A DNA stretch of 64,000 nucleotides from an uncultured bacterium. Lineage in GTDB: Bacteria > Acidobacteriota > Aminicenantia > Aminicenantales > CALLJL01. A model generated the notes under the pieces. That model ran no database searches and was not told the origin of the DNA. It saw nothing but the letters and a program-made list of their open reading frames with translations. The stretch is taken from positions 62,259-126,258 of the forward strand of contig CALLJL010000017.1 in assembly GCA_938092135.1 (NCBI GenBank), given 5' to 3'. The translations under genes and the position numbers were made by a program. Below, piece after piece: positions 87-36,391 of this stretch. Each line of letters starts with the position of its first letter. The stretch's first letter is position 1.

Positions 87-301
87 AGTTAACTCCCTCT
101 TCAACTTTATCTAAGTAACTTCCAGTTTTAAATTTAAAAATTTCTTTTGAATTCTAAACTATTTTGTATATTATCTGGGATAATTGTTTCTAAGTAAAAT
201 TAATAAAATAGAACCGCTGCAAGCCCGAATCTTTCGGTTAATTAGAGTTGATAAGACAAAATTATCAGCCAAGGTTTTGCAAGAGCAAAATTTGCGATTA
301 T

Positions 302-838
302 TTACTTTTCTTTTTGTATAGCAAACCAGTAGATAAAAAGCTCCTTTTCTAATTCCTTATAATTTTGGAATTTCCGTTGGATTATTTTCCAGAAATTCTC
401 ATTATGTTTTTTTTCGAGGAGATGAGCTAATTCATGATATATGATGTATTTAATAAGAAAAATGGGCAATTTTTGTATTTTTGTATTTAAGGTAAGATTT
501 TTCTTCGAGCTTATGCTTGCCCATTTTGTTTTCATATTTCTCCAGAAGATTCCATTTATTCTTACGCCTAAATCATCGGATGCATCCTTAATAAGCTTAT
601 TCAAAATTTCATCAATTTCATCTTTCTTCCTTTGATACAATTCCTTTTGGTAAGATTCTTTTAGACATTCATTTATAAAGCCAAGTTTTTTCATTATCCA
701 ATTTTTATACTTTTCGACGATAACTTCAGGAGAGTAGCCAAAAGGAAGGATTAAAAGAAGCTTTCCCGTTGAAAATTCTAGCCTTGGAAATTTTATATTG
801 CGAAAGGAGACTTCGTAAGGTATTTCAGGAAGCTCCAT
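302..838 (-). CDS. DUF45/YgjP-like (M48-related) HExxH metal-dependent hydrolase
   Basis: Contains the motif YIIYHELAHLLEKKHNENFW, matching the DUF45 signature HELxHLxxxNHxxxFW. The gene overlaps the hsdR 3' end by 14 nt, an arrangement often seen downstream of hsdR. Confidence 0.7.
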   Translation of the reverse strand: MELPEIPYEVSFRNIKFPRLEFSTGKLLLILPFGYSPEVIVEKYKNWIMKKLGFINECLKESYQKELYQRKKDEIDEILNKLIKDASDDLGVRINGIFWRNMKTKWASISSKKNLTLNTKIQKLPIFLIKYIIYHELAHLLEKKHNENFWKIIQRKFQNYKELEKELFIYWFAIQKEK

Positions 839-3800
839 AGTTTTTTACGCAGTCCATTAATTTTTCATGTAAAATATCCATTTCTTTCAACGATAATCCA
901 TATGTTTTCTTAATCATTCTTACAAACTTTCTTATCTCTCGTTCTATACTCCTCCTTGCTGTCGTTTGAGCAAGCCATCCAGGAAACATTAATACTCTTA
1001 ATTTTTCCGAAAGCTCCTTTATTTTATCAACAAATTCACCTTTCTTTTCAAGATTTTTCTCGAGCGTCAGAAGGAGAGAATACTCAAGGTCTGAAAAGTT
1101 TAGTGTTTTTTGTCTATGAGAGAGAGAATAGATTTCTTCAAATATTTTTACTCCTTCCTCATATATCTTTTCATAATCCTTTATTTTCTCTTTCCACATT
1201 TTAACAAGTCTTTCGACCTTCTCAACTAGAGTTTCATAAATCGGATTCCTGTGCCTTTCGACAAGAATTAATCTGTTAAGAGTAAAAAGAATATTAGCTG
1301 ACTTCTCTTTTTTATCCTTAATTTTTTCTTCTAATTGTTTAAGATACTGTTCATCAAGAGTAATTGAAGGAAGAGAACTTGAAAGCGTCTCAATCTCAGT
1401 AGATTTGTGAATTGACTCTATTGTTGTCTTATAATATTTCTCAATTTCAGCTTCATAAATTGATTTTTGGATGACCGTTTTCATGTAATAGGTGTAAATA
1501 GCCGAGAGCCATTTAAAGGAATCTAAATACTCAATTTTAACTATGTCTGGACCAAGAAGCTCAAAGAGTTTATTGAGCTTTCTATATTTACCTACAAATT
1601 CTTTTTCAGTAATCGGAGAAGATGTAAGAATATCAATTGCGTCGACCAAAGTTTTCCTCTGATAATCCCTTTTTAAGTCTTTAAATATTTCCAGGCTTTC
1701 CTGAAGCAAGTTCACAAATTCTTGCTGAATATTTTCATAACTAAAAAGGACTCCTTCAATGTCTTCTTTGCTGTAAATTTCAATAGCTCTTTTAAATTCT
1801 TTCAATATTCCAACATAATCTATGACCAGACCAGCTTCTTTTAAATCCCTATAAGGTCTGTTTGTTCTGGCTATTGCCTGAAGCAGTCTATGCTCTTTAA
1901 GAGGCTTATCAAGATATAACACTTGAAGAATCGGAGCATCAAATCCTGTTAAAAGCATATCAGTCACTATCAATATCTTGGGATACTCCTCCTCTTTAAA
2001 TTTTCCAATAATTTCTTTTCTAATAGTTTCAATATCTTTCCCTGCGTATCTTTGTCTTGTCTCTGCCACTGCTTTTAAGAGGCTGGGCTCATCTCTTTCT
2101 CTATAGGTCATTACAACTTCACAATATTCCTTTGGAAGAAGTTTATTCAGCTCAAGGCGATAAAGTTCGCAGGCTTTTCTGCTTCCAGCTACAACCATGG
2201 CTTTGAATCTTCCAACAACATTCTCCTTAAAATGTTTAACTATATCCTCTGAAATAACCTTTATTCTATTAGGATTTTCAAGAAAAGCTTTAATAGAATT
2301 GATTTTTTTTCGCACAGATTCTTCTATTTCTTCCCGCATTTCTTCTGGGATTTCTTCAAACTCCGATTCCAAGAATGCTTCCAGTTGTTCTTTTTTCAGG
2401 TGAACTTCCCTTTCAAGTCTTGGTTGATAGACAATTTTCACGGTAAAGCCATCTTTTATAGATTCCGTTATAAAATATTTATCGAGATAAAGCTCTTCTG
2501 GTGGATAACTAAATTCGAGATAAGTGTCTCTTTCCCTTTTTGAGATGGGAGTTCCAGTGAAGGCAAAAAAGAAAGCATTTCTTAAAATTGACTTCATTTG
2601 AGCTGCAAGGGTTCCATATTGTGTCCTATGCGCTTCATCGACAAAGACAATTACATTATTTCTATTCATAATAGTTTCTTTTGTCCTCGACATCTTTTCT
2701 ATTTCTTTTCCCAAATGATTCAGCTCATTGTATCTAAACTTATGAATCAGAGTTATAAATGCTCCTCTCTTTCCTCTGTAATCATCAGATTTTAAAATCT
2801 CTTTTAATTCTTCAACCGAATTTATTTTTTCAGGTTTTATAATATCAAGGGCATTAAATTCTCCGTCCAGTTGCTCTTCAAGGTCAATCCTATCCACAAT
2901 AAAAAAAACTGTGGGGTTTTGAAGTTCCTTTAAATAATAAAGTTTGTGAAAGGCAAAAATCATTGTAAGAGTTTTCCCACTACCTTGCCAGTGCCATACT
3001 AGCCCTTTATTCTTTTCATCTTCACCAATAACATTTTTCTTCACCCTTTCAACTATTTTGCTTACGGTTCTATATTGCATATATCTTGTGACAACCTTTG
3101 TTGCCTCTCCTCGCTCAATCCTGAAAAAAAGAAAATTCCTAAATATATCCAGAAGTACTTCAGGCAGAAGAAAAGAAGAGAAAATAGAATAGGAAGGATG
3201 AATCTCTTTTCTCTTTATTTTCTCTTCATTATTCTCTGTTCTTAATTCGCCTTCTTCCATTTTCCACTCTTCGGCATTCACCTCATCTTTCCATGGAACA
3301 ACTGGAAAGTACTTGGCCACTGCTTCAACGGCAACACCAATTTGAGCATATTTGAACAATTCAGGAACTTTCTTCTCGTAATCCTTTATTTGTCTGTAAG
3401 CATTGAACCAGCTTTCAGCAACATTTGTCGGGTCTTTGCCTTCAATTATTACAAGAGGTATTCCATTTATATACAAAACTAAATCCGTTCTAATCCTTTC
3501 TCTCCCATCATAAATTGCTTGTCTTGTTATTATAAACTCGTTATTATTAATGTCATTAAAATCAAAGAGCTGAACATATTTTACTACTCTTTCTTTTTCA
3601 AACTTAACGGGGATTCCAAATTTATAAAAATTTAAAATTTTCCTGGCTCCCTCAATGCCAGTGCCGGCAAGGGTCAGTTCATTAATTGCCTTTTTTATCT
3701 CTTCATCACCGATGTTAGCTTCTTTGTTGATTCTTTCAAGGGCTCGCGATAGGTTTGGAATTAGAAGAGGCTCTTTGTAGCTTTCCCTTTCGAGGCTATC

Positions 3801-3878
3801 AGCTGGAATAAAACTCCATCCTTTCTCCTGGAGTAGGCTGGAAATGTAATCTTCAACGATTTTCTTTTCTTTAAACAT
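825..3878 (-). CDS. hsdR: Type I restriction enzyme R subunit (HsdR)
   Basis: 1017 aa. Has a Walker A motif WQGSGKTLTM, a DEAH box VDEAHRTQ and SF2 helicase motifs, and sits with the other Type I R-M genes. Confidence 0.9.
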   Translation of the reverse strand: MFKEKKIVEDYISSLLQEKGWSFIPADSLERESYKEPLLIPNLSRALERINKEANIGDEEIKKAINELTLAGTGIEGARKILNFYKFGIPVKFEKERVVKYVQLFDFNDINNNEFIITRQAIYDGRERIRTDLVLYINGIPLVIIEGKDPTNVAESWFNAYRQIKDYEKKVPELFKYAQIGVAVEAVAKYFPVVPWKDEVNAEEWKMEEGELRTENNEEKIKRKEIHPSYSIFSSFLLPEVLLDIFRNFLFFRIERGEATKVVTRYMQYRTVSKIVERVKKNVIGEDEKNKGLVWHWQGSGKTLTMIFAFHKLYYLKELQNPTVFFIVDRIDLEEQLDGEFNALDIIKPEKINSVEELKEILKSDDYRGKRGAFITLIHKFRYNELNHLGKEIEKMSRTKETIMNRNNVIVFVDEAHRTQYGTLAAQMKSILRNAFFFAFTGTPISKRERDTYLEFSYPPEELYLDKYFITESIKDGFTVKIVYQPRLEREVHLKKEQLEAFLESEFEEIPEEMREEIEESVRKKINSIKAFLENPNRIKVISEDIVKHFKENVVGRFKAMVVAGSRKACELYRLELNKLLPKEYCEVVMTYRERDEPSLLKAVAETRQRYAGKDIETIRKEIIGKFKEEEYPKILIVTDMLLTGFDAPILQVLYLDKPLKEHRLLQAIARTNRPYRDLKEAGLVIDYVGILKEFKRAIEIYSKEDIEGVLFSYENIQQEFVNLLQESLEIFKDLKRDYQRKTLVDAIDILTSSPITEKEFVGKYRKLNKLFELLGPDIVKIEYLDSFKWLSAIYTYYMKTVIQKSIYEAEIEKYYKTTIESIHKSTEIETLSSSLPSITLDEQYLKQLEEKIKDKKEKSANILFTLNRLILVERHRNPIYETLVEKVERLVKMWKEKIKDYEKIYEEGVKIFEEIYSLSHRQKTLNFSDLEYSLLLTLEKNLEKKGEFVDKIKELSEKLRVLMFPGWLAQTTARRSIEREIRKFVRMIKKTYGLSLKEMDILHEKLMDCVKNYGAS

Positions 3879-4018
3879 GATATTTTAGAGCCTGAAAAAT
3901 GAATTTCTCATCAATTCTAGTTTATTAATGACTTAATCTTTTCTACAAAAGGTTTCGCTTTCTCAAGCCATTCTTCAACTTGCTTCTTTTCGAACTCAAC
4001 GAATTCTAAATAACCTCC

Positions 4019-4372
4019 TCACTGTCTTGCTTCAAATAATCTATTATAAAATCGCCCCTCTTCTGTCCCTATAAGACCTTGTTTTATAATGTATCTATGG
4101 AAATAGGCCTTAACACCGGAATGTTTTTTAAATTTTAATCCTTTTTGGAGCAATAATGCACTCACAATATAAAAGCAGGCATAACAAATTCTGTTCACAG
4201 AGAAGGAAAGCCTGTTTGCTTTTAGCTCATCTTCTGCAGAGCAAAGGGATTCTAGGGATCTTTCTACCCAGTATTTAATAATTTCTTTCTTCTTTTTAGC
4301 ACTTTCCTTCACAAGGGAATTCCTTCCTTTTCTATAAAATAATGAATAGGAAGAGGACTTAGTTTTTCCCAC
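4019..4372 (-). CDS. HEPN-domain protein (toxin-like partner of the MNT gene)
   Basis: 117 aa. The C-terminal region (CYACFYIVSALLLQKGLKFKKHSGVKAYFHRY) resembles HEPN (PF05168). The annotated start overlaps the upstream MNT gene by 64 nt, so the true start may be a non-ATG codon further in. Confidence 0.65.
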   Translation of the reverse strand: MGKTKSSSYSLFYRKGRNSLVKESAKKKKEIIKYWVERSLESLCSAEDELKANRLSFSVNRICYACFYIVSALLLQKGLKFKKHSGVKAYFHRYIIKQGLIGTEEGRFYNRLFEARQ

Positions 4373-4677
4373 TCCTTTTTTGATAGAATAAGAGGACTTA
4401 TATTTGTGTCAAATTCAATATTTATATCAAACACTATGTCTAAAATTTGCTTCCTAATCTTTTCATTTATTTCGCCAGATAGAATTATTAAAATATCAAG
4501 ATCAGATTCTTCATCAAACTTACCTGTTACCTTTGATCCAAAAAGTTTGATCTCGGTTCCATGATATAATTTTTCAACCGCAGATTTAAGTTTATAAAGA
4601 GCTTCTTGTTCGAGCTTAGTGAAATACTTCTTAACTCTATTTCTTTGCTTCAAAATACTTTTTCTTTTTATTGTCAT
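4309..4677 (-). CDS. Minimal nucleotidyltransferase (MNT) domain protein
   Basis: Carries the motif LFGSKVTGKFDEESDLDILII, i.e. GS...DxD of PF01909. It is paired with the HEPN gene. Confidence 0.75.
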   Translation of the reverse strand: MTIKRKSILKQRNRVKKYFTKLEQEALYKLKSAVEKLYHGTEIKLFGSKVTGKFDEESDLDILIILSGEINEKIRKQILDIVFDINIEFDTNISPLILSKKEWEKLSPLPIHYFIEKEGIPL

Positions 4678-4706
4678 TGTTTTGATTTTCTTTCATCCAT
4701 TAGGCT

Positions 4707-5975
4707 TCATGTTCCACTTTTATAATCTAATTTTACCCTTCTCCTTCCTGTAAGCAAATCTTCCATTAATCCTTTCTTAACTCTTTCAAGCTTATCTTTC
4801 CTTTTTTCCAGCATCTCCAATCCCTTGTCAATAGTACTCAGGATTTCAGCAATTTTTTGTTGCTCTGGGAGAGGGGGGAGGGGGAGAGGAAACCTTTTGA
4901 GGTCATCTTTTCTAATAGCTTGAAAAGTTGAACCTCCAGAAATACTCTCAAGCTTTTTGCCTTTATACTTTAAATAATAAAATAAAAACATATAATTTGA
5001 TTTATCTGCCTTACTTCTTATTGCCGCTAAACCTCTGCCAATGCAAACCTTTGCAAGAGAAATATTAACATCTCCAACCGGAGCTCTTACCGAAATTAAA
5101 ACGTCGTTTTTTTCTGCTATTTTTATTGGTTTAGAACAGTAAATACTAGGTAATGGATAAATTTCGCCAAATTCCATCTTCCCCTGAAGAAAAGGCAGTC
5201 CTTCATTTGAAGTATTATAGGTGGAGGAAGGAGGCGACTGACCCATTATTACTTCAAAAATTTTATTGTCCCCCAACCTCACCACCTCCCACTCCTTCGG
5301 AATCTTTCCAATCTCTGTGTCTTTAAACTCCTTATGTCCTATGCCTTTGGTAAGTAGCTTCTCCATCAAGCCTTTCTTTAGCCTCTCGGTCTTCTCAATA
5401 GCCAGCTTTACCTTCTCAATTGCCAAATCCACTGTGCTCAGAATTTCAGCAATCTTTTTCTGTTTAGGAAGAGGAGGGAGGATGACCTTAAAATTTTCTA
5501 ACTGATCTTTTGATAATTCTTTAAACGTGCTTCCGCTGCTCAGGTTTTGTAATTCCTTCTTTTTATTTAAGAAATAATAACAATAGAATTTTGGAAAAAT
5601 ATTCTTTTCATCTTTTGGTATTAATCCTTTGCATCCTTGATTAAATGTGGCCCTTTCTTTAAGTATAGCAACATAACCTACTGGAGCCCTGGTTGATATT
5701 ATAATTGAATTTATTGGCATCAAAGTTAAGTTACTCTCTTTCATTGCCTTTTCGGTAATTTTTCTTTCACTTTCTTTTATTTCTATTTGCCTATTTAATT
5801 TGCTTAAATCAGATGGTGTAATCCAATTTATTGTTCCATTTTTCCAATAATCGCTATTTTTAGTTGATGGCGTCGTGCCAGTTTCAACTATAAATAAATC
5901 GTTCACTTTATGAACCTCCCAATCTTCCGGTATCTTCCCTATGTCCGTAACTTTAAAATTATGTTTTTTTTTCAC
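4707..5975 (-). CDS. hsdS: Type I restriction-modification specificity subunit (HsdS), two target-recognition domains (TRDs)
   Basis: 422 aa. Two TRDs are each followed by a conserved repeat ([18 protein letters not shown].. and [18 protein letters not shown]..), the typical HsdS architecture. Confidence 0.85.
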
Positions 5976-5987
5976 TTTATTAATCTT

Positions 5988-6977
5988 TTAGGGGAAAATT
6001 CTTAATTGTTCTTTTTCTAAAATTTCATAATTTTGCGTCATTTTATTCTTAAATTCCCATATATTCTCAAATTTCCATTCACCATTTCTGATGTTCGCTT
6101 TTGAGATTGTAAAGGCCTTGAAATGTTTTGAATATTTAAAATTTTTCCCTCTTTTAAATTTTTCTAACATTAATTTTACAGGATATGAAATTATAGCCTT
6201 TTTGTCCTCTACCCTATCACCTACACGTGGATTTTTTTGATAATAGAGTTTTGTTTCTTTGAAACAAGATTGAACCACACTTCCAAGCAGCATGTCTGCT
6301 AATTGAAGAATATTAGCGTGTTTATATTCTTCAGAACACCTAACATATTTTTTATGATCAGAATTTAAATGAACTAATTCTGCTGTATCTGGGATTTCTA
6401 CATAAGAACGAACTTTTTTTCTTAGATCATAAATTATTCTAAATTCATTTAATTTTCGATGACAAGGCTGACCGTCTGTTATTATCTTTAAAATTTTTAC
6501 CTTGTGTTTATTGTCATAAAGATAATGAAGCGTGCCCTTTAATAGCATTCTTAGTAGAGTTTCCCCAAATCTCAATTCTTTTTCCTTCCTATTTTCTCCC
6601 CCATAACTCGATATCAGATCCAATTTTGGTTCCTCATAAAATATCACTCCTAATTTGCAAAAAGTATTTTTTTGTTTAAGATATTCTACCGCTATTTGAA
6701 CTATATTTTTTTCAGCATTATTTTGCTTAGTCCACTTCTGTCCTGAAATCTCAGAAAAATGAAATTTGTGATTTGCACCGAAATTATTTCTTACTTTCTC
6801 AATGTCATCAAAAAGATCAGTTAAAGGCTTGAATGTTATTGGTGGCATGCTTAATAAATTTCCTTTTTCTCTGATGGTGATTTTAACAGGAACCAAAAAT
6901 AATACATGTCCTTTTAAATTCTGATATTTTGTTTCATCGTGATATACGATAACTTCACTATAGGTTTCTTTGTTCAT
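5988..6977 (-). CDS. DUF3800-like protein embedded in the R-M operon
   Basis: 329 aa. The N-terminal VIVYHDETKY resembles the YIDESG start of DUF3800, and the internal ILQLADMLLG resembles its QLAD motif. The assignment is tentative. Confidence 0.4.
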   Translation of the reverse strand: MNKETYSEVIVYHDETKYQNLKGHVLFLVPVKITIREKGNLLSMPPITFKPLTDLFDDIEKVRNNFGANHKFHFSEISGQKWTKQNNAEKNIVQIAVEYLKQKNTFCKLGVIFYEEPKLDLISSYGGENRKEKELRFGETLLRMLLKGTLHYLYDNKHKVKILKIITDGQPCHRKLNEFRIIYDLRKKVRSYVEIPDTAELVHLNSDHKKYVRCSEEYKHANILQLADMLLGSVVQSCFKETKLYYQKNPRVGDRVEDKKAIISYPVKLMLEKFKRGKNFKYSKHFKAFTISKANIRNGEWKFENIWEFKNKMTQNYEILEKEQLRIFP

Positions 6978-7002
6978 ATTTCTACTTCCTCTTCAGGCAC
7001 AT

Positions 7003-7296
7003 TCAAGTCTTTCTCCTTGCTCTCTTTATAATGTCGCCCTTAGAATTTATTACTCCTATTCCTGTTCCTTTAGTTACAGCCAGAGCAGTGCGAAGATTTT
7101 TATCATTGGTAGCTATATATCTTGCTTTTGAGGATCTTTTTACCTGATTTATGCCATGATATATCCCACTTTTTGTAGTCTCTACTTCGATAGCTCTATT
7201 GGGTGTCACAATATCAATCCCTCTGTGCTTTTTATACTGGACACCCAGCTTCTTCGCTATGTTTTCAGCAATTTGGTCATGTCTACTCTTGCTCAT
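7003..7296 (-). CDS. Small hypothetical protein, possibly PD-(D/E)xK-like (YraN/Hjc-like core)
   Basis: 97 aa. The stretch RGIDIVTPNRAIEVETTKSG resembles the GEIDLI...VEVK core of YraN-type nucleases. This is weak. Confidence 0.3.
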   Translation of the reverse strand: MSKSRHDQIAENIAKKLGVQYKKHRGIDIVTPNRAIEVETTKSGIYHGINQVKRSSKARYIATNDKNLRTALAVTKGTGIGVINSKGDIIKRARRKT

Positions 7297-7343
7297 GTGT
7301 TCATCATCACCTCCTTTCTATTTCCCAAAAATTAATTAGCATT

Positions 7344-7571
7344 TTATCTTTCTTCCAATTCTTCTAAATATTCCTCAATCTTTTTGTCCACATCTTCAAG
7401 TTCCTTTTCAATTAACTTAATTTCTTCCCACTCTCTCTCCACATCAATTTCTTCCCTTTCCTCCTCTGGAAATACATAAAGAGTTACATTAAGGTTGTAA
7501 TCGTTTTCTCTTATCTTTTCAGCGTCAACAATTTTGGAGAAGCCCTCTATTTCTTTAAATTCGTGATACAC
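7344..7571 (-). pseudogene. hsdM: C-terminal tail of HsdM, in frame with the upstream hsdM ORF across a TAG codon
   Basis: Translates YHEFKEIEGFSKIVDAEKIRENDYNLNVTLYV, the conserved HsdM C-terminus (ENDYNLNxxRYV). Exactly 66 nt (22 sense codons) separate it from the TAG at 7638-7640. Confidence 0.7.
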
Positions 7572-7637
7572 CTTTGAAATCTTATTTATGTGTTCATCTG
7601 CGAGCCTATTTAATTTTCTAACTTCTGGATGTTGCTC

Positions 7638-9092
7638 CTATTCTTGGCTTGCATTTATAAATAGAATCTTTCCTTTCCTTCCTTCTGGTTTGCTCTTTCT
7701 GAGAATTAAAATTGCACCAGGAGCCCCAGTATTGTAGAAAAGCTTTTCCGGAAGCAAAATAACAGCTTCTATCAAATCTTTATTAAGAATTCCTGCTCTT
7801 ATTGCTCTTTCTCTTCCACCTCTAAAAAGACATCCATTGTCGATAACAACTCCTACCCGGCCATTCTTCTCATCTGCGGAAGATAGCATGTGCTGAATCC
7901 AGGCCCAATCCGCTGACTGATTAGGAGGAAATCCATATTTAAATCTTTCCTTCCAAAATTCTCCTTTTTTCAGAGTTTCCTCTCCATATCCATCCTGATT
8001 CCAGGGAGGATTGGCTATAACAATATCAAATTCCATTATTCGGTCAGCAGATTTAAACTTAGGATAAAACAAAGTATCCCCAAGAGAAAGGTGGACATTT
8101 CTTATATCATGTATGAAAAAATTCATTTCTGCTAAAGCAAGGGTCATATGATTTGCCTCCTGCCCGTAGAGGAAAAGTTTGTTGGCTTCATCCTTTCCAT
8201 GCTTCTCCTCTACATGTTTGTAAGCACCAATGAGCATACCGCCAGAACCCATTGCTAGGTCATAAACTTTCTCATTGGGTTTCGGGTCAAGAATTTTAAC
8301 AAGAAGCTTTATATCTTCCCGAGGAGTATAAACCTCGCCCTCTTTGGCCTTCTGAGGAGCAAAATATCTCAAAATCCATTCGTAGGCATCGCCAAGAAGG
8401 TCAGCAGAGACATGATGAAGGGGTTTAGCGCTAAAGAGCTCCACAAGCTGGCGCAATATTTCTGCATTTTCTCGGCTCACTGCGAATTGAATAAAGTCCA
8501 CATTTTCAAATACATCTTTAAGGTCAGGATTTCTTTCAGCAAGAATTTTCATAGCCTTAGAGAAATTCTCTGGTAACCTTGCAGGGTCTCTTCTTATATT
8601 TTCCCAGAGAAGTTCTGGTTCAATATCAAAATCATGATATAAAGATTTGCTGGCTTCTTCTCGCGCCTCTTCCTCAGATAGTCCATCAGAAATTGCTTCG
8701 TTGTATGCGGATTCAAACTCAATCTCCCATTTGTCACTTATTCTTTTGTAGAAAAGAAGAAAGAGAATGAAAGTATAATCAACCCTGGTTCTTATAAGAT
8801 CGGCAGCTCTTTTCAAAAGAGCTTCAAGCTCGCCTCTTGTAAGTTCACTTTCACCAATGGCAAGGAATTGCGATATTATTTTTTCACTCCTTTCAAGGGT
8901 ATATATCCTTTTTCTCGCATCCTCAGGGTCAAATTCAGCTCTGAGCCACCCTTTCTTTCTTAATTCAGAAAGAATTACATTCATCTGTTCTTCGCTGTCT
9001 TCAAAATCTCTTTTGAGGACATTAAAGGCATCTTCAAATCTAAAAGGAGAATCTTCATATTCTGTCCATAATGCCATGTACCTTTTCTCCAA
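7638..9092 (-). CDS. hsdM: Type I R-M DNA methyltransferase subunit (HsdM), truncated by an in-frame TAG
   Basis: 484 aa. Has the N6-adenine methyltransferase motifs DLAMGSGGML (motif I) and VIANPPW (motif IV). It ends ...ILFINASQE and then hits TAG. Confidence 0.85.
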   Translation of the reverse strand: MEKRYMALWTEYEDSPFRFEDAFNVLKRDFEDSEEQMNVILSELRKKGWLRAEFDPEDARKRIYTLERSEKIISQFLAIGESELTRGELEALLKRAADLIRTRVDYTFILFLLFYKRISDKWEIEFESAYNEAISDGLSEEEAREEASKSLYHDFDIEPELLWENIRRDPARLPENFSKAMKILAERNPDLKDVFENVDFIQFAVSRENAEILRQLVELFSAKPLHHVSADLLGDAYEWILRYFAPQKAKEGEVYTPREDIKLLVKILDPKPNEKVYDLAMGSGGMLIGAYKHVEEKHGKDEANKLFLYGQEANHMTLALAEMNFFIHDIRNVHLSLGDTLFYPKFKSADRIMEFDIVIANPPWNQDGYGEETLKKGEFWKERFKYGFPPNQSADWAWIQHMLSSADEKNGRVGVVIDNGCLFRGGRERAIRAGILNKDLIEAVILLPEKLFYNTGAPGAILILRKSKPEGRKGKILFINASQE

Positions 9093-9936
9093 CCATTTAG
9101 GAAGATATAAGTTTTTAGATTGTCTATTATTAAATAAGTTTTTTTATTCATACTTATTCAATGAATAGTATTAAGCTATTTGTCATGCCCAAGACGATAA
9201 TTTTTTTAATTATTATTAAGTTAGATTCCGAGGTAAAAATGTCAGAAATCTATCCCTCAGGCAGGCCGGAGGCTTAATTGCTACTTTCAGGCTTCTTATC
9301 TCATCTGCCCATAGAGATTTATTACATCTTTGTCTGTTCTTAGACAAAAACGGCAGTTTGAATATCTGCCCATAGGCTTTCTTGCGAATCCTTTTAGGCT
9401 TAAAGACTTGCCGAGAGTAAAATTTATGCTTGCTGAGGCATTAGAGAGCTACAACGTCACAAACTAACAATAAAGGTCTTTTTTTGTTCTAAAAAGGCAA
9501 TGGCATATTTTGTTTGCCAATTCGCCATCATAAATCCTCTATAGGTAACTGCTTCGACCGAAACTCCTTCACGCTCTCATTTTAGCGCTTCACCATAGCC
9601 AAGACCTGTGAAGCTACGCCTCTTTTTTCCCTAACGCCCTCCTAACTACTCTATTCTCCTAGGAAAAGCACCTTAATCAAATACTCCTGAACCAAACTAA
9701 TCAGCGCCACCTCAAAGTGATTCCTTTCCATTTCTTTATGCCAACGTAAAGTAACCTCTTTTATTTCGAGATTTTCTTCTTAAAAAGAGAGTTTTCGATG
9801 GCTCCCTTCCCATGATCAAATTGCAAACTATTTTGTCCACGGCAACTTTAAAGCATTTTGTATACCAGCTTTTTAAATAGCAAATAATTATTGCCACAGG
9901 CATCTGATTTAATTATTATAGGCATGTTTTTTCTCC

Positions 9937-31292: not shown

Positions 31293-32744
31293 TCAATAGG
31301 CCCGGGCAAAATAAACATATTCAGAGGCCAGCTGGCCACAGTAAACGCAATTTCCTTTGCCCTCCTTAACTTTTTCAAGGGGAATCACCCTGATCGTGGC
31401 CGCTGTCTCTTCTTTGATGGACTCTTCACAGGTTTCTTGACCACACCACCAGGCTCTGATAAAGCCACGTCTATCCTCAATTATTTTTTTGAAATCTTCA
31501 TAGTTATCGACATCGTGGGTGTTTCTTCGCTGGAACTCAAGAGCCTGATTAAACATATTTTTCTGGATTTCTTCTAAAAGATTGGTTATCTTCCCTTCTA
31601 AGTTATCCATACTTGTAGTCAATTTTTCACCATTATCCCGGCGAACAAGAACAACTTGCTGCTGATTGATATCTTTTGGTCCTATTTCGAGACGAAGGGG
31701 AACGCCTCTCATTTCATATTCAGCAAATTTCCATCCCGGAGTGTATTCTTCTCGGCTATCAAGCTTTACTCTGATTTTCGCAGCCATTAATCTCCTTTCC
31801 AAGTCAACGGCCACAGGGAGAACAGTTTCTTTCCACCGGCCAATGGAGATGGGGACGATTATAACTTGAATCGGAGCAATATGAGGAGGCAACCTAAGCC
31901 CCGAATCATCTCCATGACTCATAATTATTGCTCCAATTAAACGAGTTGAAACTCCCCACGATGTCTGCCAGACGTATTGAAGATTCTGATTGGAATCTTC
32001 AAAGCGAATATTAAAAACTCGGGAGAAATGCTGACCAAGATGATGGGAGGTGCCCATCTGCAAAGCTCGTCCATCCGACATCAAAGCTTCCACTGAATAA
32101 GTCTCTAAGGCACCAGCAAATTTCTCGCGGGATGTCTTTTTTCCGACAACGACTGGAATGGCCAACTCAGTTTCGATGAATTCCCGATAGAGATTTAAAA
32201 TTTTGAGTGTTTCCTCTCGAGCTTCTTCTTCAGTGGCGTGAGCCGTATGTCCTTCCTGCCATAAGAATTCAGTTGTACGAAGAAATGGTCGCGTTACTTT
32301 TTCCCAGCGAACAACATTGGCCCACTGATTGATTAAAATCGGCAAATCTCTCCAAGATTGAATCCATTTAGAGTACATGGCGCCAATAATGGCCTCAGAA
32401 GTAGGCCTCACTGCCAGCCTTTCTTCAAGCTCTTCCTGACCACCATGGGTTACCCAAGCAACCTCAGGAGCAAATCCCTTAAGATGCTCCATCTCCTTTT
32501 TGAGAAAGCTTTCAGGAATGAAAAGGGGAAAATAGGCATTAACGTGACCTGAAGCTTTAATCCTTCGATCAAGGAGCTGTTGAATATTCTCCCAAATAGC
32601 ATATCCATAAGGACGAATTACCATCATCCCTTTCATGGGAGCATAATCCGCCAGCTCTGCTCGGCGAATGACATCCACATACCATCGAGAGAAATCTTCG
32701 CTTTTTGGAGTTATTTGGGTTACCAGACGTTCTTCCTTCTTCAC
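31293..32744 (-). CDS. proS: Proline--tRNA ligase, archaeal/eukaryotic-type
   Basis: Class II aaRS motifs, no bacterial insertion domain, a C-terminal Zn ribbon (CVYCGQ), and a terminal Tyr. Confidence 0.9.
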   Translation of the reverse strand: MKKEERLVTQITPKSEDFSRWYVDVIRRAELADYAPMKGMMVIRPYGYAIWENIQQLLDRRIKASGHVNAYFPLFIPESFLKKEMEHLKGFAPEVAWVTHGGQEELEERLAVRPTSEAIIGAMYSKWIQSWRDLPILINQWANVVRWEKVTRPFLRTTEFLWQEGHTAHATEEEAREETLKILNLYREFIETELAIPVVVGKKTSREKFAGALETYSVEALMSDGRALQMGTSHHLGQHFSRVFNIRFEDSNQNLQYVWQTSWGVSTRLIGAIIMSHGDDSGLRLPPHIAPIQVIIVPISIGRWKETVLPVAVDLERRLMAAKIRVKLDSREEYTPGWKFAEYEMRGVPLRLEIGPKDINQQQVVLVRRDNGEKLTTSMDNLEGKITNLLEEIQKNMFNQALEFQRRNTHDVDNYEDFKKIIEDRRGFIRAWWCGQETCEESIKEETAATIRVIPLEKVKEGKGNCVYCGQLASEYVYFARAY

Positions 32745-32997
32745 CGCTTAACCTCTCCGTTTAAACGCTGTCATTCTAACGATTTATGAGGAATTTTGTC
32801 AAGGATTGGATTTATCAAAATCTTAATAAAGTATATGCTTTTTTTATTATAAGAAATGGTTAAGATTAATTAAGTAGGGTGAAAGAAGAGAAGTTATCCT
32901 CAAGCCTATTTTCACCCCTTATTTCATCGACAGAGGTGATTGACCCTTTATTTTCCAGCCGACATGATAAAAATGAAAAAATAAGAGGAAGAAATCC

Positions 32998-33357
32998 ATG
33001 AATTTTGATAGAGTGAATAATGATGGGCCAATAACTATTGGCGGCGACAAAGTTTTTAATCTCCCCTTACCTACCCTGGTCGAAGGAGAAACTCCTACCG
33101 GCGAGAGCTTCCAAGAAAAGACAGTGCTTAATTACATAAGCCACCAAGGAGCTATTTTTCAGCTTAAAAGTCCAGTAACTATAGGCACTCGATTGCGGCT
33201 GGCCATCGATCTGCCGCGTGCCCTGGCTGAAGACAGAAATCTTAAACTGATCATCCGGGGTCAGGTAATTTTAGTTGAAAGGTTGATGAACAGGAAAAAA
33301 CGACAGCGAATAACCCTAAAATTTGAAAATAAATATTTTATTAAAGAAAAAATTTAA
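32998..33357 (+). CDS. PilZ-like domain protein, degenerate paralog of 34337..34768
   Basis: Aligns with the downstream PilZ protein but lacks the RxxxR motif. NYISHQG stands in for the D/NxSxxG motif. Confidence 0.45.
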   Translation: MNFDRVNNDGPITIGGDKVFNLPLPTLVEGETPTGESFQEKTVLNYISHQGAIFQLKSPVTIGTRLRLAIDLPRALAEDRNLKLIIRGQVILVERLMNRKKRQRITLKFENKYFIKEKI

Positions 33358-33541
33358 TTTTTGAGAATATTTCTTTTTTAAATCGTCATATTATTGTCTT
33401 TATTTCTTAGCTCATCCAAGGCGTTGCCGGAGGAGAAGAAAGATTAAATTCTTTCCTCTCCTCCAGTTCAAAAAATTAAATTCATTAATCCCTAATATAT
33501 TTTTAAAGGTTAATATATAAATCCGTTAATTTGAATCTCCC

Positions 33542-33570
33542 TTGACAATCCTTTTTTCTCTCAATAAAAT
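33542..33570 (+). promoter_or_regulatory. Sigma70-like promoter: TTGACA, 17-nt spacer, TAAAAT
   Basis: TTGACA at 33542-33547 and TAAAAT at 33565-33570, 48 nt upstream of the regulator's start codon. Confidence 0.4.
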
Positions 33571-33617
33571 CACTTTGAAAAGAGATTCATTTTGAGCGGC
33601 GAAGGGAGCAAAAAGTA

Positions 33618-34307
33618 ATGCCTAGGAGAAGCCAAAAAGCCCCGGAAATTGAAAAAATAAAGTTGCTTGTTTTTTGCCCTTCGGAGCTTGTTTTGGCCGG
33701 CATTCTCAAATCGCTTGAGCTGGCTAAGGATATCACTGTTATCCACATCGAAAGGGGCCCAATTGAAAATCTTATGGAAGCGATGAAGAAATTGAAACCG
33801 CAGGTCATTCTTTTTGCCAATACAGAAATGCTTCCTAATCTCAAGGAAATCTGCAAGGCCATAAAGGAATTCCTCAAAGCCCAAGGGCAGGGCCATCTTC
33901 TTCTTCTTGGCAATATTTCTTCCCATGAAGAAATTGTAGGGTTGATGAACGCCGGGGCCCGCGGCTATTTTGACCTAAATAATCCCTCGCAGGAGCTCCC
34001 TGAAGCCATTCGAGTTGTCCAGCGAGGCGAAATTTGGCTTCCCCGCGATAAAATGAGTTCAATTATGGATAGAATTATCTCGGTCGTGGGCCGAGATTTC
34101 AAAGAAAAAACCCTCGATCAGTTAACCCCTATGGAATTTCAAGTCCTGAAGCTTATCGGCCAAGGTCGATCAAATGATGAAATTGCCAAAATTTTGTTCA
34201 TAAGCAAAAATACAGTTCGCTCCCATATCAAAAGTATTTATGCTAAATTAAATACCCATAGCCGTCTTCAGCTTGCCCTTTATGCCATTAACTCGGCCCT
34301 CTTTTAA
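33618..34307 (+). CDS. LuxR-family transcriptional regulator with a pseudo-receiver domain
   Basis: C-terminal LuxR HTH (SNDEIAKILFISKNTVRSHIKSIY). The N-terminal receiver-like fold lacks the acidic pocket and phospho-Asp (ILFANTEM where D is expected). WLPR at residues 140-143 resembles the VpsT W[FLM][TS]R c-di-GMP motif. Confidence 0.7.
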   Translation: MPRRSQKAPEIEKIKLLVFCPSELVLAGILKSLELAKDITVIHIERGPIENLMEAMKKLKPQVILFANTEMLPNLKEICKAIKEFLKAQGQGHLLLLGNISSHEEIVGLMNAGARGYFDLNNPSQELPEAIRVVQRGEIWLPRDKMSSIMDRIISVVGRDFKEKTLDQLTPMEFQVLKLIGQGRSNDEIAKILFISKNTVRSHIKSIYAKLNTHSRLQLALYAINSALF

Positions 34308-34336
34308 ATCAACACCTGTTTTCGAGGAGAAAGTCA

Positions 34337-34768
34337 ATGAGAAATGGTCAAGAAGGAGGGAAAAAAAGAGCGAAATTTAGCCAGAAAAAAACTTCTTTAA
34401 AAAGGTCAGTCCGCTTACCCATCATAGTCAGCAATCGTCGCCGAGAATGGCGTTTCGATTTGCCGCTTGAGGCTGTGGTCAAAGGACAATTGCCCCAGGG
34501 TAAGCCCTTTGAAGAAACAACCACCATTGAAAATATTAGCTCGGGCGGTGCCTATTTTGGCCTCAACTCAGAAGTTGTTATCGGCTCCAAGCTTGACCTC
34601 ACTATTAATTTACCTGAGAAACTAACCGAGGGAAGGAAAATGCAGCTTGTGGTCAGTGGCACCACTGTCCGCTTGGAAAAAGCAGAGAAAAAAGGCAAAA
34701 AACAGGGAGTGGCCGTGCGCTTCGGCCGGAATTATAAATTTGTAGCTGTTGGCAAATCAGAAAGTTAA
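34337..34768 (+). CDS. PilZ domain protein (c-di-GMP receptor-like)
   Basis: RRREWR (the RxxxR motif) and NISSGG (the D/NxSxxG motif). Confidence 0.6.
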   Translation: MRNGQEGGKKRAKFSQKKTSLKRSVRLPIIVSNRRREWRFDLPLEAVVKGQLPQGKPFEETTTIENISSGGAYFGLNSEVVIGSKLDLTINLPEKLTEGRKMQLVVSGTTVRLEKAEKKGKKQGVAVRFGRNYKFVAVGKSES

Positions 34769-34798: not shown

Positions 34799-35437
34799 AT
34801 GCCTTTTCTTAAAGTGGCCCTAACCGGTGGAATTGCTTGTGGCAAATCCATTGTCGGTCAATACTTAAAAAAGAAAGGCTGCTACTGGCATCAGGCTGAT
34901 GTTGTCGCCCACCGGCTCATGGCTCCAGGAAAAAAAGCATGGAAAGCTATTGTTGACCATTTCGGCCTCGAAATTCTCAATGACGATGGAACCATAAATC
35001 GTCGTAGGTTGGGAGATATAGTTTTTTCTAATCCAAAAGAAAGAGAATTTCTCAATCACCTCATTCATCCCCTCGTCTTGAAGAAAAAAGAAGAAACTCT
35101 CCGGCGGCTCGAGAAAACTGGTAAAAGTGGCATTTTTATTTCTGAGGCTGCCCTAACCATTGAAGCTGGCTTTGCCTCCTTTTTCGATAAAATCATTGTA
35201 GTCTATTGCCCAGAGGAGATCCAGGTTGAACGCCTCATGGCAAGAAACAATCTTTCCCGGGAAGAAGCCTTAAAGAGAATTAAGGCTCAATTGCCGTTGG
35301 AGGAAAAGCTTAAATATGCTGATTATATTATTGATGCTTCAGGAACAATCGAACAAACAATTGCCCAGACTGAAAAGGTTTATCAATCCCTTCTCCAGGA
35401 TCTTGAAGCTAAAAAGTTAGCCCTTTCAACTTTTTAA
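34799..35437 (+). CDS. coaE: Dephospho-CoA kinase
   Basis: P-loop VALTGGIACGKS. Confidence 0.85.
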   Translation: MPFLKVALTGGIACGKSIVGQYLKKKGCYWHQADVVAHRLMAPGKKAWKAIVDHFGLEILNDDGTINRRRLGDIVFSNPKEREFLNHLIHPLVLKKKEETLRRLEKTGKSGIFISEAALTIEAGFASFFDKIIVVYCPEEIQVERLMARNNLSREEALKRIKAQLPLEEKLKYADYIIDASGTIEQTIAQTEKVYQSLLQDLEAKKLALSTF

Positions 35438-36391
35438 ACAGGCGGCCAAAAGGGGGATCATAATTTCGTGGTGACCAATAAAATAATATCCTTTGCCTTT
35501 ATTGCCCACTATCCTTCTGATGACATTCTGTTCGGGCCGATAATGACGGATAAAATCAAAAACAGCTGTGGTAAAATTTTCCAGCAACTTCCCCTGATTA
35601 CGAACATAGCTGACAGCTTTTAGAAAAACTTCGGGCAGGATAACCGCTGAGCCAACATTGAGGTAAACGCCACCTCCCTCAAGTTTCTCCACCTGGGAGC
35701 AGAAAATAAAAAAATCGCGCAGGGAAGTCTTACCAATGGCTTCACCACTAGCCTGGGGATGCATATGAATGACGTCAGTGCCAATGGCCACATGAACTGT
35801 GACCGGTAAATTTAAACGAAAGGCGGAAGCAAGGAGACTCAAATTTTTATAGGGAAAATCAGAGCCAGCAATCATTTCTCCCACAGCTTCGCCCAAACCT
35901 AAACTTTTTTCAGCTCCGCGGATTATAGCCTGATTTAAAAACTGCGCCGTTTCTCTGGTCATTCCAAAGGAACCCGATTCAAGCTGGCTGGAAACATCTT
36001 CAGAGGTCTGACCACAATAGGCAATTTCAAAATCATGGATAATACCTGCCCCATTTAAGGCCAGAGCCGAAATAAACCCTCTTTCCATCAAATCAATAAG
36101 GATGGAATTTAAGCCAACTTTAATAACATGGGCGCCCATTCCCAAAATAGTCGGTTTTCTTAACGAAACAGCTTTTCTGATCGCGGCGACGAGTTCCCGA
36201 AAATTCTTAGCTGCCAGAATATCAGGCCAGCTTTCAAGAAATTGATTAAAGGGTTTATCCGGTGAAAAAGGGGAGCCAAATTGAGTCACATTGACCTTGC
36301 TTAATCTTTCTTTAATTGAAATTGTTTTTAGATCTGAGGGCATAATTTCTTCCGTTAAGAACCAATTAATCCTGTGTGTCTTCAGATTCAA
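35426..36391 (-). CDS. Deoxyhypusine synthase-like protein
   Basis: VGLNSILIDLMERGFISALALNGAGIIHDFE aligns with the deoxyhypusine synthase (DHS) core [31 protein letters not shown]. The start may be the internal Met, since the annotated 5' end overlaps the HU gene. Confidence 0.45.
   Translation of the reverse strand: MNLKTHRINWFLTEEIMPSDLKTISIKERLSKVNVTQFGSPFSPDKPFNQFLESWPDILAAKNFRELVAAIRKAVSLRKPTILGMGAHVIKVGLNSILIDLMERGFISALALNGAGIIHDFEIAYCGQTSEDVSSQLESGSFGMTRETAQFLNQAIIRGAEKSLGLGEAVGEMIAGSDFPYKNLSLLASAFRLNLPVTVHVAIGTDVIHMHPQASGEAIGKTSLRDFFIFCSQVEKLEGGGVYLNVGSAVILPEVFLKAVSYVRNQGKLLENFTTAVFDFIRHYRPEQNVIRRIVGNKGKGYYFIGHHEIMIPLLAACLKS

Follow-up and report, generated by a model that had tools for sequence, protein, structure and literature searches.

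Three adjacent genes on the forward strand, at positions 32998-34768 of a 64,000-nucleotide stretch of contig CALLJL010000017.1 from an uncultured bacterium of the Aminicenantales (the whole of this stretch is referred to below as the window), encode a transcriptional regulator (33618-34307, 229 residues) flanked by two PilZ-type proteins, here named PilZ-A (32998-33357, 119 residues) and PilZ-C (34337-34768, 143 residues). The trio is a real unit, a core-genome regulatory module kept across the class Aminicenantia (Acidobacteriota), and its three open reading frames (ORFs) lie exactly where an initial annotation, made from the letters of this DNA, had placed them. The best explanation that we can offer for the whole, put forward tentatively and with slightly less than even confidence, is that the regulator, a LuxR-family transcription factor of the VpsT/CsgD/QstR class, acts independently of phosphorylation and is blind to cyclic di-GMP (c-di-GMP), and that the input of this second messenger is provided in trans by PilZ-C. 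The initial annotation had suggested a transcription switch controlled by c-di-GMP; such a switch is conceivable by way of PilZ-C acting in trans, but hardly by way of the WLPR motif of the regulator.

Residues 168-223 of the regulator form a GerE/LuxR helix-turn-helix (HTH) domain (Pfam PF00196, E-value 1.6e-19), and the Pfam scan of the same protein returned no Response_reg match; a match to the B12-binding family (E-value 0.063) was set aside as generic similarity between flavodoxin-like folds. Alignments to LiaR/VraR (5hev, 1.5e-22) and to NarL cover the whole length of the regulator, and its AlphaFold2 model (predicted local distance difference test score 78) consists of a regular (beta-alpha)5 receiver followed by an additional helix, alpha6, and then by the HTH, with beta1 at residues 14-19, beta3 at 63-68, alpha5 at 124-135 and alpha6 at 143-157. 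Foldseek comparisons made with this model gave LiaR, VraR and RcsB as the top matches, with VpsT at rank 9. Structurally the regulator is a member of the VpsT/CsgD class, having a receiver-like domain, the extra alpha6 and a GerE HTH.

Receiver positions were mapped both by pairwise alignments and by a family profile built from 36 homologs, the two approaches being in agreement, and residue conservation was assessed among 81 orthologs of the regulator. The position after beta1 that corresponds to the Asp-Asp (DD) pocket is occupied by C20-P21 (both invariant, 81/81), the phospho-acceptor position at the end of beta3 by A67 (80/81), followed by N68, the Thr/Ser position in beta4 by G98 (81/81) and the Lys position in beta5 by L120 (78/81). 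The loss of the DD pocket, the phospho-Asp and the Lys, as described in the initial annotation, is therefore borne out by the alignments and orthologs alike; no conserved Asp stands at the acceptor position, and with every catalytic position replaced the protein is not a canonical phospho-accepting response regulator. Although devoid of catalytic residues, the receiver-like domain is strongly constrained throughout, and the C-terminal HTH region is mostly invariant across the class. When the N-terminal 165 residues were searched against 1.84 billion representative proteins, about a dozen close relatives were obtained, all of them orthologs or fragments, and below these only generic receivers of approximately 30% identity; a genome collection yielded 281 matched stretches coding for a relative.

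The motif W140-L141-P142-R143 (nucleotides 34035-34046) aligns exactly, residue for residue, on W131-L132-T133-R134 of VpsT (3kln), in the pairwise as well as in the profile alignment. It lies in the loop between alpha5 and alpha6, the latter beginning at R143, and inside a block of 23 residues (G137-R159) that is identical in 81/81 orthologs; the Gly-Glu pair that had been assigned to alpha6 in the initial annotation in fact precedes this helix. W[F/L/M][T/S]R and K120 make up the published c-di-GMP motif (PMC7288161), from which the regulator departs by having Pro instead of Thr/Ser at position 3, and K120 of VpsT aligns, again by both methods, to E129, an invariant residue of the family, so that the charge at a nucleotide contact is reversed. 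WLPR is the known proline variant carried by QstR of Vibrio cholerae and BrpT of Vibrio vulnificus (PMC6237807).

The downstream gene encodes a canonical PilZ barrel, with a Pfam PilZ (PF07238) score of 33.5 bits against a cut-off of 22.5 and a precomputed match in most of its orthologs. Its RxxxR site (R34-R35-R36-E37-W38-R39, nucleotides 34436-34453) and its [D/N]xSxxG site (N66-I67-S68-S69-G70-G71, nucleotides 34532-34549) are intact, as had been noticed earlier, and both are kept by approximately 70 orthologs (RRxEWR and NISSxG); the fuller forms seen in orthologs are RRxEWRF[DE]LPL and ENISS[GT]GA[YF]F. PilZ-C may on this ground be expected to bind c-di-GMP; judged by its motifs, it alone among these proteins has an intact site and is hence the sole credible sensor. 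The RRxxxR switch is directly preceded in PilZ-C orthologs by low-complexity N-terminal tails of 20-90 residues, rich in Lys, Ala and Pro, and a basic C-terminal tail is also found in some of them; similar tails are known from histone-like proteins, and a role in nucleic-acid binding is possible. In the window the Lys-rich tail is encoded at 34337-34435, and tailed orthologs include P0374, P0389 and P0323.

PilZ-A has no Pfam match, and no match was obtained in a PDB search with the PilZ profile at E-values up to 1. It is nonetheless a paralogue of PilZ-C (38% identity over 94 residues, BLASTP 1e-24), in line with the relationship first proposed for the two flanking genes, and fold comparison gives it a PilZ fold, with MrkH among its structural neighbours. 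Its c-di-GMP site is degenerate: GGDKV stands in place of RREWR, so that the reported loss of RxxxR holds, and YISHQG, with Tyr for Asp/Asn, in place of NISSGG. The protein belongs to a class, A1, whose members in general are without RxxxR.

Gene order was compared among 80 Aminicenantes genomes; for the locus of the window, recorded gene calls were taken from that of a homolog 89% identical to its regulator. Wherever the contig was long enough, the order was pcm-proS on the reverse strand followed by A1-[A2]-regulator-PilZ-C-coaE on the forward strand, so that the trio is found between proS and coaE throughout. Two degenerate PilZ-like genes, of classes A1 and A2, are located upstream of the regulator in 67/80 loci; A2 has been lost in the lineage of the window (the window itself, L081 and L001-L003). 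Three paralogous PilZ genes bracket the regulator on both sides in 58/80 loci, and the canonical one always comes after it, within about 20 nucleotides. Across the class the regulator (69-90% identity) is as conserved as ProS (66-86%), the corresponding values being 48-79% for CoaE and mostly 50-75% for PilZ-C.

The median gap is 20 nucleotides between the regulator and PilZ-C and 16 nucleotides between PilZ-C and coaE (69 loci), and this short spacing suggests that regulator, PilZ-C and coaE form an operon. No terminator-like sites were found between its genes up to coaE, which is probably the last gene. In the window the operon is preceded by a sigma70-type promoter, TTGACA-17-TAAAAT (33542-33570, forward strand), which is near consensus (11/12), in keeping with the clean promoter initially described. 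The median gap of 180 nucleotides between A2 and the regulator holds this conserved promoter: matches to a simple promoter pattern were found 5' of the regulator in 51/79 related loci, and the remainder of the spacer is not conserved.

A promoter-like site of lower score, TTGACC-17-CATGAT (32940-32968, forward strand, 9/12), precedes PilZ-A, its -35 element being conserved across loci as GATTGACC. It is adjoined by an operator-like block (32876-32945, forward strand) that is also conserved across loci and contains heptamers, in the window AGGGTGA at 32876-32882, an inverted TCACCCC at 32912-32918 and GAGGTGA at 32933-32939, the last of these touching the -35. The consensus AAT.TC.CCC(N5)TTCAYC(N3)AGGGGTGATTGACC, ending in the -35, is present 5' of PilZ-A in 70/81 loci and spans 32912 to 32945 in the window. 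The heptamer GGGGTGA/TCACCCC occurs at a density of 3.6 per kb around the two promoters, compared with 0.146 in the remainder of the same loci, a 25-fold difference. A forward copy adjoins the A1 -35 in 42/60 loci and an inverted copy lies approximately 20 nucleotides upstream in 21/60, while high-GC lineages carry one or two TCACCCC just 5' of the regulator -35 (13 + 17 occurrences in two position bins, 67 loci), examples of such heptamer-bearing regulator promoters being those of L051, L034 and L080.

These heptamers are a candidate operator, presumably of the regulator, which is the obvious candidate binder because its HTH region is mostly invariant and the site equally so. Neither CATCCAAGG nor RGGGTGA was enriched across the 64-kb window, and no regulon can therefore be read from it. 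The sequence GGGGTGATTGA in the promoter of PilZ-A is similar to the 11-bp CsgD box (CGGGKGAGNKA), a similarity mentioned as a lead only.

According to the explanation that we prefer, the pseudo-receiver, having no catalytic residues, would serve as a scaffold for dimerisation and interaction, with the invariant G-E-I-W-L-P-R junction and alpha6 forming the dimer interface. The dimer would most likely form without c-di-GMP, leaving the regulator itself blind to the signal; a ligand-free dimer is proposed because of the proline variant and because of the Glu at the position of VpsT Lys120. The regulator would be made constitutively from the strong conserved sigma70 promoter, on one transcript with PilZ-C and coaE, and ligand-bound PilZ-C would bind the pseudo-receiver, or else adjacent DNA or RNA polymerase, and so change the activity of the regulator. 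The degenerate upstream PilZ paralogue or paralogues could then be c-di-GMP-blind partners or competitors. By binding the heptamers of the PilZ-A promoter and those that many lineages also carry at its own promoter, the regulator would exert feedback on the PilZ genes. The sequence analysis itself establishes which genes are present, the state of their motifs, their folds and conservation, the operon spacing, the promoters and the cis-elements; ligand-free dimerisation, c-di-GMP binding by PilZ-C, any contact between PilZ proteins and regulator and the identity of the heptamer-binding protein are what we infer. The input of c-di-GMP would most plausibly be in trans through PilZ-C, this being the most economical model and one favoured by the mrkH-mrkI precedent discussed below, by the operon that the two genes share and by the paralogues on either side of the regulator.

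A number of observations weigh against this explanation. Gene order is frozen for the whole neighbourhood, pcm, proS and coaE being equally syntenic, so that the link between PilZ genes and regulator is not singled out by synteny; no PilZ gene accompanies the closest outgroup regulator (P0136, 31% identity, with WAPR) on the single 4.6-kb contig available, and the pairing is thus not seen outside the class. Heptamers were not seen at the regulator promoter in the lineage of the window, and a search of the 64-kb window by regular expressions alone revealed no gene for a GGDEF, EAL or HD-GYP protein; synthesis of c-di-GMP in this organism would be implied solely by the purifying selection apparent at the PilZ-C site. 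The QstR and BrpT precedents are, moreover, distant Vibrio proteins, and BrpT binds c-di-GMP weakly, so that weak or cooperative binding by the regulator may still occur.

The synteny of the housekeeping genes and the outgroup regulator also speak for the alternative that survives best, though we consider it unlikely, namely that the genes are neighbours only: the regulator would be a global factor that is constitutive or otherwise controlled, the PilZ proteins would have unrelated targets (nucleoid, envelope or motility), and their proximity would merely reflect frozen gene order. The presence of coaE in the operon means that co-transcription is no proof of shared function, and the Lys/Ala/Pro-rich tails of PilZ-C hint at a nucleic-acid binding of its own. 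Such independence is difficult to reconcile with the bracketing of the regulator by three PilZ paralogues in most loci, the canonical one invariably following closely behind it, and with a heptamer common to the promoters of PilZ-A and, in many lineages, of the regulator, which ties both units to one factor.

A more elaborate form of the trans explanation, which we rate as clearly unlikely in its full extent, may be pictured as a split VpsT, in which the alpha6 dimer is fixed by the proline variant and sensing has been passed to a co-translated, stand-alone PilZ-C docked on the pseudo-receiver, with the one or two degenerate PilZ paralogues acting as ligand-blind decoys and feedback on their expression exerted through the GGGGTGA heptamers and a conserved RNA hairpin described below.

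It is distinctly improbable that the regulator itself is a c-di-GMP receptor of the VpsT type, in which binding at WLPR would drive dimerisation through alpha6 and DNA binding, with the PilZ proteins as accessories. That WLPR occupies the exact position of the VpsT motif, as had been noted initially, is correct; W, L and R are retained, the surrounding block is invariant and the alpha6 helix is predicted. What does not stand is its use as evidence of c-di-GMP binding, given the proline at position 3, outside W[F/L/M][T/S]R, and the invariant Glu in place of K120. Both characterised WLPR regulators are reported to be c-di-GMP-independent: QstR is fully functional when c-di-GMP is low, its R130A substitution is almost neutral and its P129T substitution leads to strict c-di-GMP dependence (PMC6237807), while BrpT is reported in the same paper, after Chodur et al. 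2017, to be c-di-GMP-independent, the title of the latter work as cited there speaking of a proline variant that "suppresses dependence on signal association". BrpT does bind c-di-GMP measurably, if weakly, review tables giving a Kd of 135 uM as compared with 3.2 uM for VpsT.

The motif is also far from specific. Among the receivers of approximately 30% identity, G-E-x-W-[VIAL]-[PSE]-R-[KR] is very common, often without the conserved Lys. The environmental proteins P0136-P0270 include many with G-E-x-W-[VIAL]-P-R-[KR] at the alpha5-alpha6 junction and without the conserved Lys, some of them only about 150 residues long and lacking an HTH. The proline variant is common in nature, and since the junction G-E-x-W-x-P-R-[KR] is common in non-canonical receivers from metagenomes, including HTH-less proteins, it is best read as a widespread structural feature of alpha6-bearing receivers which alone constitutes no c-di-GMP signature. 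Direct sensing by the regulator is consequently unlikely, because the WLPR proline variants QstR and BrpT are reported to work without c-di-GMP and K120 is replaced by an invariant Glu, and a W-x-x-R motif alone should not be annotated as a c-di-GMP site.

Very improbable is the sensing of some other signal by the pseudo-receiver, such as redox state or a metal at its two invariant cysteines, C20 (within the C-P-S, C20-P21-S22, that replaces the former acidic pocket) and C79, or another small ligand: the invariance of these residues and the strong constraint on a domain without catalytic residues would be compatible with it, but no family, motif or structural match for a metal or redox site was found, and protein-protein interfaces explain the conservation equally well.

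Between PilZ-A and the regulator, a further element of the forward strand (33413-33464) consists of an invariant CATCCAAGGCG at 33413-33423 and, 3' of it, a 14-bp hairpin whose arms occupy 33429-33443 and 33450-33464 and which in the window folds with -25.5 kcal/mol (z-score -5.2). The arm sequences vary among four relatives of the lineage, and those folded, L001-L003, all give a strong hairpin (z-scores from -3.1 to -5.6); the arm changes within the lineage are compensatory, pairing being kept. In genomes that carry A2, the same element is found within the 5' codons of this gene (e.g., L057:3448-3513), as a stem of approximately 22 bp that spans the codons for S-I-Q-G ... G-K-R-E-R-x-F-E-L-S-L-P-A-L-V and folds with -40 to -52 kcal/mol per 96 nucleotides.

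In an alignment of 59 A2 sequences by codons, scored with a manually specified structure, 84% of cells were paired, as opposed to 38-57% when the 3' partners were slid, and covarying pairs were present (15-57, with GC 24, AU 22 and GU 8; 25-48, with AU 37 and GC 10). The median z-score was -4.15 for A2, compared with 0.0 for A1 and -0.5 for PilZ-C at the paralogous codons, where there is no comparable structure. RNAalifold did not recover the long stem from the codon alignment, Rfam scans of the window region and five related loci at E-values up to 1 returned no riboswitch, whether for c-di-GMP or another ligand, and no family matching the hairpin, and there is no U-tract after the hairpin. 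In the window the hairpin is a relic, no longer coding, of the first part of A2, the gene lost in this lineage, and since the element has persisted after the gene around it disappeared, its function lies at the level of nucleic acid. Possible functions are termination or stabilisation of the A1 transcript, cleavage by RNase III and the binding of a protein to the RNA.

The module is flanked in the window by proS (31293-32744, reverse strand), which is divergent and upstream of PilZ-A, and continues on the other side into coaE, the gene for dephospho-CoA kinase (34799-35437, forward strand), which begins 30 nucleotides after PilZ-C and for which the Pfam family CoaE is recorded on an ortholog. 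The 3' end of coaE overlaps by 12 nucleotides a convergent ORF of 321 residues (35426-36391), conserved among some members of the class, whose ortholog has no recorded Pfam match. Further away, the region from about 300 to 9100 has a low GC content (0.32-0.35, versus about 0.41 elsewhere) with a strong negative skew and carries, on the reverse strand, genes of a type I restriction-modification system, HsdR (825-3878), HsdS (4707-5975) and HsdM (7638-9092); it is probably an acquired island.

The Aminicenantes, an uncultured lineage, are abundant in sediments and in the subsurface, and no paper on c-di-GMP in this group was found in the literature searched. The module offers a first concrete handle on second-messenger signalling there. 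It is undescribed and restricted to one class, and represents a new combination of known parts and not a new kind of system. LuxR-type regulators are known to relate to c-di-GMP in two ways, by binding it directly, as VpsT does, and by having lost the signal, as in QstR and BrpT; if the preferred explanation is true, a proline-variant regulator together with a canonical PilZ protein and degenerate paralogues would be a third, in which sensing is left to a trans-acting adaptor. Should the split form hold as well, a partner switch based on PilZ proteins would govern a core regulator throughout an entire class of bacteria.

Of the known systems, VpsT of V. cholerae (3KLN/3KLO) shares with the regulator a receiver-like domain extended by alpha6, a GerE/LuxR HTH, independence from phosphorylation and W-L-x-R at the same aligned position. 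The two differ in that VpsT has WLTR and K120 and needs c-di-GMP, while the regulator has WLPR and E129; sequence similarity is confined to residues 115-226, VpsT ranks behind LiaR, VraR, RcsB and ChrA in the structural comparison, and PilZ neighbours are not described for it in the literature searched. CsgD of Enterobacteria, a biofilm regulator of the LuxR family, is likewise unphosphorylated and has a receiver-like N-terminal domain, and its NCBIfam model matches the regulator at 1.4e-17; at 64 bits, far below the cut-off of 250, orthology with CsgD is ruled out. QstR and BrpT carry the identical WLPR and are LuxR-type proteins that dimerise and act without c-di-GMP (PMC6237807), but they belong to competence and biofilm circuits of Vibrio and are likened to the regulator by their motif, and no PilZ partner of QstR is described in that paper.

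A precedent for the trans arrangement is provided by Klebsiella, in which the PilZ protein MrkH senses c-di-GMP and is co-transcribed with the LuxR-type MrkI, a protein without the VpsT motif (PMC3161979). The MrkH-MrkI-MrkJ system of Klebsiella pneumoniae thus resembles the present locus in the co-transcription of a PilZ gene with a LuxR-type regulator; MrkH, however, is itself a DNA-binding activator and a single protein of 234 residues, whereas here there are separate PilZ-type genes encoding 119-143 residues, no EAL gene is adjacent and the regulator comes before the PilZ gene. PilZ adaptors such as HapZ, which acts on SagS in Pseudomonas aeruginosa, show how a stand-alone PilZ protein can contact a receiver-fold domain and relay the c-di-GMP state; the target there is the receiver of a histidine kinase and not a transcription factor, and the likeness to the module of Aminicenantia is one of concept.

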